From: Amphiscolops sp. MND2022
Lineage: Eukaryota
DNA: 64,000 nt
Direction: 5' to 3'
Assembly: GCA_964187785.1 (NCBI GenBank)
Contig: OZ076409.1
Coordinates: 67,768,001-67,832,000, forward strand
The notes beneath the pieces are model-generated. The model had not been told where the DNA came from, did not search any database, and worked only from the letters and a program-made list of their open reading frames with translations. A program made the translations under genes and the position numbers. This document shows, piece after piece, positions 38,462 through 52,887 of the stretch; position 1 is the first letter of the stretch, and each line of letters begins with the position of its first letter.

Positions 38462-38501
38462 GCGTAGCTTCGCGTATTTTTCAACTTTTTCATCTTAATA
38501 A

Positions 38502-39326
38502 ATGTATGAAACTCCGTCTCTTCATAAGTTTGGTTATTCTAGTGAACAGCTAAAACTGAGGGAATATCAGGAGCTAAAAGATATGATAAAAAGCCAAGAA
38601 AAATTAGCCCAAATAACCCATTCCAAATTAAAAGAAGATTTGCAACGCGATTTTGAAAATGACATAGAAAATCAAGAGAAATTAATAGAAGAAAAAATAC
38701 TAGACGTGGTAGCTATCGCGAAGGGGCATCAAACACTAGACCCACAGGAAATTCAAGATGTTTTATTAAACACAAAGTTGATGAATGATATTTATTCCCA
38801 GTTTTCAGACCTTTCAAAAACCATAAATAAATTAGAACAAAATATGAAAAAATCTTTCGCCGAACAAAGAACTGCTTTAGTAAATGAGGTACTAAATTTA
38901 ATACACAACAATAGTTTTGAAATGTTAACAGTCCGTAATTTAAAGTTTATGAGTCAGGTGGGTCAAGCTGGAATGATTTTAAATGAAGATGAAATTAATA
39001 AAATTTTTAATAGCCTAGATCAAAATAAAATTACTATAACTAACAACATAATTCAACTGCTTTATGACAAAGGCTTGTTCGATTCCTTTCCCAATAAAGA
39101 TCAAGCTTTTGCAAATTATCTAACTTTTAGTGAATCCTATTTAAAGGAAAAGTATGGAAAAACAATACCTACTTCAGATGGTGAATATTATCTGTCGGAT
39201 TTAGAATATTCTACCAGACAATCAATTCTGGAGTCATTGAAAAAAGATTCCTATAAAGACCTTGTTGATATGAAACACAGAATGAAATTAACACCAACGG
39301 AAATAAATTTCATTTTATATGATTAA
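38502..39326 (+). CDS. Polinton ORF1, coiled-coil-rich protein of unknown function (274 aa)
   Basis: Long intact ORF with TAATAAATG start and an E/K/Q-rich heptad N-half. Confidence 0.85.
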   Translation: MYETPSLHKFGYSSEQLKLREYQELKDMIKSQEKLAQITHSKLKEDLQRDFENDIENQEKLIEEKILDVVAIAKGHQTLDPQEIQDVLLNTKLMNDIYSQFSDLSKTINKLEQNMKKSFAEQRTALVNEVLNLIHNNSFEMLTVRNLKFMSQVGQAGMILNEDEINKIFNSLDQNKITITNNIIQLLYDKGLFDSFPNKDQAFANYLTFSESYLKEKYGKTIPTSDGEYYLSDLEYSTRQSILESLKKDSYKDLVDMKHRMKLTPTEINFILYD

Positions 39327-39329
39327 TAA

Positions 39330-40028
39330 ATGGAACAAAAACTCTATCCCTCTCTGACCCCCTCGACAGCTAACGCAACGGCTTCTCCCCCCACACCATA
39401 TGATGTAGAATCAATGATAAATAAGCGATTGCAAAGCGAATTACAAAAAGTAAATAGTTTCAATAATTCTATTCAAAACATTAGTCTAATGATGAAATAT
39501 TATGAAATGGAAGAAAAGAAATACAAACAGAAATACAACAAATACAAGCTAATAAATAACCTAATTAACTCCCTCGATGGTATTATAGTGATTGGAACAA
39601 CTTCAGCATCAATCTCACTAAGTATTACTGGTGTGGGTATTATAGTTGTTCCAATCGCTGCAGGAGTTGGTTGTACAACTGGTATCCTTGTTAAGATTTG
39701 TTCTAGTTATTTGAAGAAAAAGGAGCAAAATTATAAACTTAAGTACACTATTATTCAGAAGACTCTTGACGACTTTAGACAACTTTATGTCGCTAGCCTA
39801 AAAGACAACTGTATAGATGAAAAAGAATATCATCGATTTGTGACTCAATTTGAAAATTATCAGGCGACAGCTAACGCGACAGCTAACGCGACAGCTAACG
39901 CGACAGCTAACACAGCTTCACAGGAAATTCACACAAAATCACACAAAATCACAGCTTCGCATGCAAAATCACAAGTAGCTTCGCACACACCACCAACAAT
40001 ACCACTTAAACCACACAATTTTTTATAA
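39330..40028 (+). CDS. Polinton membrane protein (coiled coil plus hydrophobic hairpin; N-terminal LYPSL)
   Basis: GIIVIGTTSASISLSITGVGIIVVPIAAGVGCTTGILV flanked by basic helices; ANAT repeats near the C-terminus. Confidence 0.85.
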   Translation: MEQKLYPSLTPSTANATASPPTPYDVESMINKRLQSELQKVNSFNNSIQNISLMMKYYEMEEKKYKQKYNKYKLINNLINSLDGIIVIGTTSASISLSITGVGIIVVPIAAGVGCTTGILVKICSSYLKKKEQNYKLKYTIIQKTLDDFRQLYVASLKDNCIDEKEYHRFVTQFENYQATANATANATANATANTASQEIHTKSHKITASHAKSQVASHTPPTIPLKPHNFL

Positions 40029-40140
40029 TTAATTTATTCAATTTTAACATAAAAAATAAAATAAAAATTAACACTAATAATTGAAAAATATACTATTGAA
40101 AAATATGCTGCTATTAAATTCATAAATTTATTATAAATAA

Positions 40141-50814: not shown

Positions 50815-52125
50815 TCATATTTTGATAATTTGAATTGTGAAGGTGAGTGTCTCCCCGTTGAAATCAACTGAATCATGATTAGAGTCCTCAAGGAAAAATT
50901 GGATGGTGTCCAGTCGTGTTTTGTTAATTGATTTGTACAAAACAGTTGTGGGTTCTTTTATAATTTTATATCCGGGAGGTGCGCTTAAATTGAAAGAAAA
51001 TAAAATTTGCTCTCGTATACCATTAACAATTGAACCATCTACACAGTCGCACTTCAGATGAACTTTGTCGGTGGTTGTTATCATGACTGGTTTTTCTGAA
51101 GTGTGAGTTCCGGGTGGGTACACTGTGTGTGTAAAGCCCAAGACTGTGTTAAGTTTGGAGTTAAATTGAATATTGTTTGAGGTTGTTAAAACTGATTTCA
51201 TTGATATTGTGTCAGGTATTAAATCAAATTTGAAATCATAATCACTTTCATTAATTTTTTGTTTAATAGCATTATTTATATCAACTAGTTCATAAACTCC
51301 TGGTGTTAGATAAATTTCAAAGAAATCGTTTTCAACAATGTCAAAAGGGGGTAAATTTATTTGATTTATTTGGTTTGCTTGGTTTATTTGGTTTACTTCG
51401 TCATCTTCGTCATCTTCGTGATTTCCTTGGGTTGTTTGGTTTACTTCGTGCGGAGCTGTGTGTGAAGCTTCATCCTCCAAAATTATTTCCTCCCACTTTA
51501 TTTCTTTCCAATTTATTTTTGCCTGTTTTAGGTGATCTTTGTATTCTTTAATTATTCTTTCTCGATTTAGTTTTGCGAGGCTTTGCTCTTGTTTTAATTT
51601 TTCTTGGTTTATTGTTTCCTGGTTGAGGCGATTGTTGTATAATTCATTGAGTGATTTAACTATCTTTGTTAAATAATCGAAATCCATTCTAGTAAGTTTA
51701 TTCTTTTTAGAATAACTATTAGTAATAAGTTTATTGGCCTTTTCTACAAATTCATTATACTCACTAAGTGTGTAAGGTTTACCAAAATAAGTAACGTATA
51801 AATCTTCAACAAACAGTATTAATCCACTATCAAGTTTAAGTTCTTTGAGTTGTTGATCATTCAGAATAATTTGTAGTTTGTTATTCTTTTCAGTAATGTT
51901 ATATACAGTGTTGTATACTTCTAAACTTGTTACTCCCATCATCCATTTTTCAGGCAGTAGTAATGGAACATCAAATGAGAAAGATTCTTTCTGTTTAGTC
52001 ATTTTAAATTCTAGAGTTTCTTGTGGTTTAGAATGAGTATTTTCAACAATTTCTTGATTAGATTTTGCAATACTTAAAAGAAGAGATTCTTTTTTATCAT
52101 ATGTTACGAAGCTTGATAGATCCAT
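50815..52125 (-). CDS. Minor capsid protein (penton, single jelly-roll), 436 aa, with a large internal helical/acidic insertion
   Basis: WMMGVTSLEVYNTVYNITEKNNK at the N-terminus; VHLKCDCVDGSIVNG...ILFSF...PPGYKIIKEP...VDFNGETLTFTIQI at the C-terminus. Confidence 0.92.
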   Translation of the reverse strand: MDLSSFVTYDKKESLLLSIAKSNQEIVENTHSKPQETLEFKMTKQKESFSFDVPLLLPEKWMMGVTSLEVYNTVYNITEKNNKLQIILNDQQLKELKLDSGLILFVEDLYVTYFGKPYTLSEYNEFVEKANKLITNSYSKKNKLTRMDFDYLTKIVKSLNELYNNRLNQETINQEKLKQEQSLAKLNRERIIKEYKDHLKQAKINWKEIKWEEIILEDEASHTAPHEVNQTTQGNHEDDEDDEVNQINQANQINQINLPPFDIVENDFFEIYLTPGVYELVDINNAIKQKINESDYDFKFDLIPDTISMKSVLTTSNNIQFNSKLNTVLGFTHTVYPPGTHTSEKPVMITTTDKVHLKCDCVDGSIVNGIREQILFSFNLSAPPGYKIIKEPTTVLYKSINKTRLDTIQFFLEDSNHDSVDFNGETLTFTIQIIKI

Positions 52126-52173
52126 TTATTAAGAAAAAAATCCTTTTTTCTCAGCTCCGCGAAGCTGCGCGCA

Positions 52174-52389
52174 TTATAGATTAAATTGTTTGAATCCACT
52201 AGCGGAAATGTTATTTATAAATTCTTGCCTATCTTTTGATAATGTTTTCTTATGTGTGAAACTCTGCGGCTTCGATGAATTTTTTCCATGATTTTGATTT
52301 TGATTGTGAAGCTGTGTGCGAGAGCTGTCGCGTAGCTGCGTGGGTTGGATAATTTTATATTGAGTTGAATAATTCTTAATTTTCTTCAT
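52174..52389 (-). CDS. Small basic Polinton protein, 71 aa
   Basis: TAATAAATG start. C-terminus EFINNISASGFK is conserved (EFINNIAASGFK) at the syntenic position in the relic at 18840-19049. Confidence 0.75.
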   Translation of the reverse strand: MKKIKNYSTQYKIIQPTQLRDSSRTQLHNQNQNHGKNSSKPQSFTHKKTLSKDRQEFINNISASGFKQFNL

Positions 52390-52805
52390 TTATTAGGTTT
52401 GAAAGTTTGATAGTATAAATTTAGTACTGCATTTTTGAACCCAATTTTATTTGTGAGATACAGTGTGTATAAACAATACGCCGCGCAATAACTGTCGTTG
52501 GTCTGAATTTGATATTCTGAATAAATACCATTTTTAATATGATTAAGTATATTAGTTGGGGGTGGGCATCCATATGAATCAAAATAATTTTGATTTGTAA
52601 ACATAACCCAATGTGTTCCCACTGAGGGATGTAAGTTAACTATACCACTGGTAGTGGTAAATTTATCATCTCTCATGTATATTCCACATGGAATATTTAA
52701 TTCATTAAGTATTTCTTTTATTTTTACATTGGAAGTTGCTTCGTTTTTTAGTCCGTATTTTTCAACAAATTCTTTGAATGATAAATAATTGCGAAGCTGC
52801 GCCAT
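52386..52805 (-). CDS. Adenain-like cysteine maturation protease, 139 aa
   Basis: GIVNL...GTHWV (His), YFDSYGCPPP (Asp), QIQ...SYCAAYCLY (Gln/Cys). Confidence 0.95.
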   Translation of the reverse strand: MAQLRNYLSFKEFVEKYGLKNEATSNVKIKEILNELNIPCGIYMRDDKFTTTSGIVNLHPSVGTHWVMFTNQNYFDSYGCPPPTNILNHIKNGIYSEYQIQTNDSYCAAYCLYTLYLTNKIGFKNAVLNLYYQTFKPNK

Positions 52806-52887
52806 TTATTAGTTATTTTTCATTGGTGTGTATTAATGTTGTGTGAAGCTGTGCGTGGTTAAAATTATTTCCCATGTGGTAAAAATA

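Follow-up and report, generated by a model that had tools for sequence, protein, structure and literature searches.

Gene content and gene starts of the element

We analyzed a stretch of 64,000 nucleotides from Amphiscolops sp. MND2022 (contig OZ076409.1, positions 67,768,001 to 67,832,000), here referred to as the window. It contains an intact Polinton of 15,825 bp with 33% GC, all 12 long open reading frames (ORFs) of which start behind the same short word. The ends of the element read AGTAGT...ACTACT, the arms of its terminal inverted repeats (TIRs) are approximately 700-715 nt long and 99% complementary, and a target-site duplication (TSD) of 6 bp, GCGGTC, flanks it at 37757-37762 and 53588-53593. 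Long TIRs, a 6-bp TSD, a protein-primed PolB and an rve integrase identify it as a Polinton. In the following list the first coordinates of each gene span the upstream core (positions -15 to -12 from the ATG, see below) and TAAATG.

37763..53587, no strand: complete Polinton, between exons of a TRPM gene (intron)
37763..38462, + strand: left TIR, holds a 17-bp tandem array
38487..38504, + strand: core and TAAATG of ORF 38502-39326, 274 aa, no assigned function; first after the TIR, no upstream gene
39315..39332, + strand: core and TAAATG of ORF 39330-40028, 232 aa, with a hydrophobic segment
40126..40143, + strand: core and TAAATG of the protein-primed PolB, 40141-44007, 1288 aa
45386..45403, - strand: core and TAAATG of the major capsid protein, 45388-44129 (PF21738); TTATAA before ATG
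46377..46394, - strand: core and TAAATG of the rve integrase, 46379-45501 (PF00665); back-to-back with the ATPase 46414-47631
46399..46416, + strand: core and TAAATG of an A32-like ATPase, 46414-47631
47997..48014, + strand: core and TAAATG of a second A32-like ATPase, 48012-49067, Cys-rich N-terminal region
50187..50204, - strand: core and TAAATG of ORF 50189-49056, 377 aa, conserved Polinton protein
50783..50800, - strand: core and TAAATG of ORF 50785-50216, 189 aa
52123..52140, - strand: core and TAAATG of ORF 52125-50815, 436 aa, probable penton
52387..52404, - strand: core and TAAATG of ORF 52389-52174, 71 aa, no assigned function; overlaps the protease stop
52803..52820, - strand: core and TAAATG of ORF 52805-52386, 139 aa, probable cysteine protease; first after the right TIR
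52888..53587, - strand: right TIR

The integrase, the double jelly-roll (DJR) capsid protein of the Polinton type and the A32 ATPase were assigned by matches to PF00665, PF21738 and PF04665, respectively. The PolB was recognized by its aligned motifs and is 47% identical to the PolB of a related family (family C, see below) which itself matches PF03175. Two A32-like ATPases are encoded, and PolB as well as one of the ATPases carry Cys/His-rich N-termini. For the protease and the penton no Pfam or PDB match was found; the 139-aa ORF is probably a cysteine protease, judging from its His/Asp/Cys motifs, and the 436-aa ORF is probably the penton. By resemblance, with no database match, the 232-aa and 189-aa ORFs probably belong to the classes 'GasderminX' and 'Cupiennin', respectively (names taken from PMC8502044). 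The 274-aa ORF had no match in the ESM Atlas.

An earlier note on this DNA had named 12 ORF starts preceded by ATAA and had called ATAAATG invariant. The 12 coordinates do mark ORF starts, and ATAA stands before each of them, as TAATAA in eight, TAAATAA in three and TTATAA in one. The latter belongs to the capsid gene, which therefore lacks AATAAA. Among the other ATGs of the element (n = 562) ATAA precedes 5 and TAA 16 (Fisher p 3e-21 and 1e-17, respectively). A bias towards the first ATG after a stop yields TAA in 7% of cases at local composition, which corresponds to p ~2e-14 for 12 of 12; under each null applied (local composition, any shared 3-mer, first-ATG-after-stop bias) p was <1e-13.

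That these 12 are all the motif-led ORFs of the element holds for the long ORFs. A 13th motif-led ORF is present, but it has no upstream core and its N-terminus differs among copies. Furthermore, a decayed duplicated Polinton fragment with homologues of the protease, the small ORF and the penton lies at 18300-21700, within a different intron of the TRPM gene. As the earlier note had stated, the small ORF at 18840 retains ATAA directly before ATG, and so does its duplicate at 21088, while the adjoining penton homologue near 19050 does not.

43703..44026, - strand: 13th motif-led ORF, 44020-43703, 105 aa, antisense to the 3' end of PolB; doubtful gene
18834..18842, + strand: start of the relic small ORF with the motif; duplicate at 21082-21090

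Two genes of the Polinton come first after a TIR and another two form a divergent pair, which leaves 4 of the 12 with no upstream neighbour on the same strand. Only two abut an upstream stop and six others are found at gaps of 26-380 nt. The divergent ATGs are 34 nt apart in the window and 14-41 nt apart in relatives. In three relatives (L095:2128-2143, L101:2471-2486, L277:4096-4111) the divergent integrase and ATPase genes are separated by 14 nt, and at this spacing the T's opposite the TAAAT of one gene fall at -13 to -15 of the other. Downstream of the stops neither a terminator nor a regular polyA signal was found.

Conservation in diverged relatives and the upstream core

Relatives were searched in the source genome (1.07 Gb). 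At least 100 intact capsid genes were 92-100% identical to that of the window, and 1,346-2,901 first-look candidates were obtained. In the 30 closest copies TAA directly before ATG (here written TAA-ATG) is kept at the capsid, integrase and ATPase genes (30 of 30 each). This is inheritance only; the real test is provided by the diverged families. Family B shares 80% identity with the window element in the capsid. Family C is far more distant (capsid 41%, integrase 37%, ATPase 31% and PolB 47% identical) and has another gene content and order. The 274-aa ORF was not seen among the family C copies examined. Family E is a hybrid with a capsid block from family B and a PolB block from family C (L264-L266, L281-L282). 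Some Polintons are inserted beside or inside one another (L088, L091, L269).

Gene starts were counted for every core gene with an N-terminus matching a reference, in 38 stretches and with decayed copies included. This homology-only count replaced a hand-picked list (TAA-ATG at 59 of 69 starts) which had included small ORFs noticed via the motif. It comprised 107 distinct starts, with TAA-ATG at 91, ATAA-ATG at 69 and TAAAT within 12 nt at 103. The conserved word is TAAAT, which mostly overlaps the ATG and sometimes lies a few bases upstream; ATAAATG as an invariant is thus valid for the window, and in diverged relatives only TAAAT(G) remains. Variants include TAAAT or TAAATAAGA directly before the ATG, where the TAA is out of frame or further upstream, and the protease start of family C1 has no TAA-ATG. 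TAG and TGA almost never stand in for TAA, and newly shifted starts again bear the motif.

A second component became apparent when the starts were aligned on the ATG. The A/T content is 96-99% at -15 to -12 and drops to 69% at -8, in a relaxed spacer. T occupies -13 in 69 of the 91 TAA-ATG starts (background 0.32). By family, this T was found in 8 of 12 (the window element), 9 of 13 and 13 of 16 starts, with p 0.026, 0.001 and 9e-5, respectively. The pattern W7-N5-W-TAA was present at 26 of 58 starts versus 1 of 16 TAAATG words that are not starts, and the hand-picked start set gave the same picture of the core. This core had not been noted in the first reading of the window. It is the other defining feature of vaccinia late promoters, which are characterized by TAAAT overlapping the start codon and, behind a relaxed spacer, a T ten bases upstream in a T-rich core; all of these features are found here. 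Promoters require such a fixed spacing of one helical turn, for which models of translation or polyadenylation offer no explanation.

Some family E copies carry an intein of 346-348 aa with a LAGLIDADG endonuclease in motif C of PolB (YMD/S...HN/TDS, slashes marking the insertion; protein P0360):

L282:7834-8877: PolB intein
L267:1440-2477: PolB intein

Among the matches listed, 113 of 119 intein relatives occupy the same Y-x-D site, mostly in polymerases of the giant-virus type. One is identical to a gene of a giant-virus metagenome-assembled genome (GVMAG), and a few are in other protein-primed PolBs. Neither the intein nor its host polymerase P0501 was found in IMG/VR with single-protein patterns, nor was there a PDB match. 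No report of an intein in a Polinton of an animal genome was evident in the literature listing.

Between genes of the window Polinton 11-bp tandem arrays are present at 47640-47990 and 45406-45500. A GC-rich, near-palindromic short word (the GCGAAGCT family) is dispersed over 37913-53429, for example at 40328, 40712, 41471, 42128, 44585, 45424-45479, 49976 and 52791, and also occurs in frame within the PolB, capsid and protease genes. It was counted 44 times in the element, once in the remaining 48 kb, 48 times in a sister copy and 0-1 times in other families. It seems to be a mini-insertion peculiar to this family, one that alters N-termini between copies.

Host genes and other Polintons

The genome size, the intron-rich TRPM gene and histone arrays point to an animal host. 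A finding that would have spoken against an element-specific signal, a similar frequency of ATAAATG at host genes, was not made: the starts of H3, H4 and nine tubulins had a purine at -3 in 11 of 11 cases and TAA in 0 of 11. Two starts within the window had previously been named as controls without the motif. Both CCTTT-ATG at 13867, the first ORF of the TRPM gene with T at -3 and no TAA, and CACC-ATG at 8395, of a retroelement ORF, exist, although both are only putative starts. The first part of the window (1-10000) holds a decayed retroelement with an rve domain at 1193-1882 and a strong skew of C over G (about -0.4).

A second Polinton lineage of the same genome (L290-L307), found via PF03175, had neither TAA-ATG nor TAAAT at any of its 55 starts (0/55 each), and 43 of the 55 had a purine at -3. 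The GC content of this lineage is 42%. Its genes are closely packed and run in one direction except for PolB, which lies on the other strand, and it has an adenain-type protease (PF00770); TAAAT is under-represented inside its ORFs (z -1.3 to -3.2).

Outside the genome only distant Polintons were reached (PolB core 32-40%). No close relative by major capsid protein or PolB was found in IMG/VR, and none in phage records. A related family, P0389, is absent from the source genome. The survey of other Polinton clades, which the earlier note had proposed, covered 98 loci from IMG/VR, metagenomes and one metagenome-assembled genome and gave TAA-ATG at 15 of 383 starts. These Polintons (L103-L200) comprise motif-less classes and classes with TATA(TA) or TAAAA before the ATG, scattered over the PolB tree. 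The TATA and TAAAA classes are possibly tuned to other helpers. In a quick PolB tree of 42 chosen loci minus L304, the TAAAT families formed one clade and the second lineage another, with a support of 100 each. Since the signal marks the starts of the TAAAT families and is absent from host genes and from the second lineage, it is a property of the element lineage and not of the host.

Word usage inside the ORFs was compared as well. Sense AATAAA occurs at 2.2-3.2 per kb in the TAAAT lineage versus 0.1-0.8 per kb in the second lineage. Against codon shuffles no depletion of AATAAA was seen in either lineage, which makes the difference in density weak evidence, and splice words likewise failed to separate the two. 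TTTTTNT is mildly under-represented in three related families of the TAAAT lineage (14 observed, 27.5 expected), which may be general run avoidance.

A candidate helper-virus promoter and its known counterparts

Transcription very probably starts at the TAAAT motif. We consider it probable, with less assurance, that the signal is read by the RNA polymerase of a helper virus, of the cytoplasmic pox- or giant-virus type. This interpretation was put forward in the earlier note as one of several, and it has gained support from the conservation among families, from the T at -13 and from the absence of the signal in host genes and in the second lineage. The two-part signal, an A/T core with T at -13 followed by TAAAT overlapping the ATG, would act as a late promoter. 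The polymerase of a large cytoplasmic virus and its late factors would bind the core and initiate within the A run before the ATG. By analogy with vaccinia, each gene would then be a separate, nearly leaderless unit, and slippage on the template T's would add a poly(A) leader that changes the unfavourable T at -3 into A. Integrated copies would, as in mavirus, remain silent and be switched on only when the cell is infected by a compatible helper. As the genes, among them PolB and integrase, all share a single class of promoter, one burst of expression late in the helper cycle would be expected.

A virophage-like lifestyle, in an animal, is our best reading of the element and a reasonably likely one. 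It fits that no RNA polymerase, capping enzyme or transcription factor was matched among the 12 ORFs, several of which have no assignment; the earlier note had likewise recognized no RNA polymerase. Side support comes from the PolB intein, an allele common in giant-virus polymerases.

Several observations weigh against transcription by a helper virus. TAA-ATG is not pox-specific, as it was found at 75 of 657 starts in loci of non-pox giant viruses. Orthologous starts are not independent, so that pooled counts overstate the evidence. Neither AATAAA depletion nor TAAAT avoidance exists inside the ORFs, and these tests do not discriminate. A search of the same genome for VLTF3 (PF04947) gave no match, although it was run without a positive control and did not extend to other helper genes. 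Over its length the intein is matched best, at up to 47%, by other protein-primed PolBs; a direct helper origin is thus not required for it, and the window PolB has none. Finally, the copy number given above requires repeated access to the germline, which is easier to envisage for a nuclear element.

The last point also speaks for a nuclear, autonomous element whose signal would serve host RNA polymerase II as an initiator with a short leader, used directly or via an element-encoded factor. The many intact copies, the lack of visible helper genes in the VLTF3 search, the Cys/His-rich N-termini of PolB and one ATPase and the element proteins without an assigned function also favour it. Nevertheless, we regard it as unlikely. 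The host genes and the second Polinton lineage share polymerase II and lack the signal, T at -3 is contrary to the host context, and divergent ATGs can be only 14 nt apart. TATA-like words right at the ATG would place the polymerase II start within the ORF. A dedicated factor, as considered in the earlier note, was not found among the ORFs: the 274-aa ORF is not shared by the family C copies examined, and the 377-aa protein, the only unassigned one common to all families, also occurs in motif-less Polintons. In a weak model (pLDDT 64, pTM 0.36) an orthologue of the latter gave a weak fold match to a bracovirus DUF8207 protein, and its fold resembles no transcription factor. The helper could instead be a cytoplasmic linear plasmid, or a larger element derived from a Polinton, that encodes a pox-like polymerase itself; in yeast, pGKL2 plays this part for pGKL1. 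We know of no element of this kind in animals, and this variant seems very unlikely to us. It draws on the yeast virus-like elements, which have a protein-primed PolB, a TAAAN initiator and poly(A) leaders made by slippage; their promoters, however, have an upstream element like that of pox early promoters and not the late T at -13 (PMC6211774).

A role in translation or 3' processing only, in which TAA stops insulate the ORFs or allow re-initiation and AATAAA ends the upstream message, would account for the in-frame TAA of all 12 window genes, the two stops in eight, the AATAAA in 11 and the two genes that abut an upstream stop. The earlier note had offered a fused polyA-signal/stop/start module as an option. 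It is highly improbable, because four genes have a TIR or a divergent gene before them, the divergent ATGs are 14-41 nt apart, and the remaining gaps are up to 380 nt long. The capsid gene does without AATAAA, ATAA falls to 69 of 107 in relatives, and TAAAT or TAAATAAGA directly before the ATG places the TAA out of frame or further upstream; TAG or TGA hardly ever substitute, and the T at -13 stays unexplained. Chance in A/T-rich intergenic DNA combined with inheritance from one ancestor could be proposed because the regions upstream of the starts are 77% A/T and the motif-bearing families form one PolB clade. It is largely refuted and retains next to no probability: besides the p values under the three nulls, the motif is kept in non-homologous genes, across 31-47% protein identity and rearrangements, and is re-acquired at shifted starts.

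The signal bears on how animal Polintons (Mavericks) express their genes and on whether a helper is required for it; sharing of helper promoters is so far established only for protist virophages as well as Polinton-like viruses (PLVs). If transcription by a helper virus is correct, the promoter predicts the existence of a pox-like virus in this host. A vaccinia-late-type promoter on every gene lends itself to a direct assay and is a simple sequence test for any Polinton, with the motif-less lineage of the same genome as a built-in control. More tentatively, and with less than even confidence, many Polintons of this animal may be integrated parasites of a poxvirus-like cytoplasmic virus. Start signatures might then divide the Polintons of animals into those transcribed by a helper (TAAATG, TATA or TAAAA) and those transcribed by the host (motif-less, GC-richer), both present in one genome, with the promoter predicting the kind of helper.

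A pox-type promoter had not been described for Polintons of animals in the literature searched, subscription papers and supplements being outside its scope. The word promoter is unused in the accessible text of Krupovic et al. (PMC11161782), and two preprints, as far as accessible, deal with promoter motifs for protist systems only. The Maverick/Polinton elements of the Beta-adintovirus type share TIRs, a 6-bp TSD, a divergent protein-primed PolB, rve, an A32 ATPase and a DJR capsid; their description, in its accessible text, contains neither 'promoter' nor 'helper' (PMC8502044), and the window element differs by its two A32 ATPases. For the entomopoxvirus-associated PLVs, likewise in an animal, a reliance on a poxvirus has been proposed (Barth et al. 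2024, PMC11296320). They were found by co-purification and described as highly diverged; the main text does not use 'promoter', 'motif' or 'TAAAT'. The yeast elements pGKL1/2 are likewise linear DNA with a protein-primed PolB, a TAAAN initiator and poly(A) leaders made by slippage, but they encode a polymerase and a capping enzyme themselves, use an upstream element of the early type and lack both capsid and integrase (PMC6211774).

The pairs of mavirus or endogenous mavirus-like elements (EMALEs) with CroV, Sputnik with mimivirus and PgVV with PgV are similar in organization, being integrating, rve-bearing, polymerase-less elements with one helper-type promoter. The genes of mavirus and Sputnik share the late promoter of the helper (PMC6428243, PMC10945749), and promoter sharing with PgV has been described for PgVV (10.1101/2022.07.28.501842). 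As in the present genome, the motif differs among element types that share a host. In contrast, the host here is a multicellular animal, the capsid is of the Polinton type (PF21738), the motif is of the pox type and the helper is putative.

The signal itself is closest to the vaccinia late promoter, in which a T is conserved ten bases upstream of TAAAT(G), with further T's around it; intermediate promoters lack this T (PMC11980589). The same spacing is given in Table 1 of PMC11423596, TAAATG has been marked in salmon gill poxvirus (PMC4542343), and poly(A) leaders by slippage are shown for vaccinia as well as for the yeast linear elements (PMC6211774). TAAAT over the ATG, the T ten bases upstream among T's, the relaxed spacer and the occasional TAAAT followed by a downstream ATG are common to both. 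Unlike in vaccinia, the signal is here known from sequence alone, in the context WATAAATG, and is carried by all genes of an integrated 16-kb element without a recognizable RNA polymerase, PolB and integrase included.

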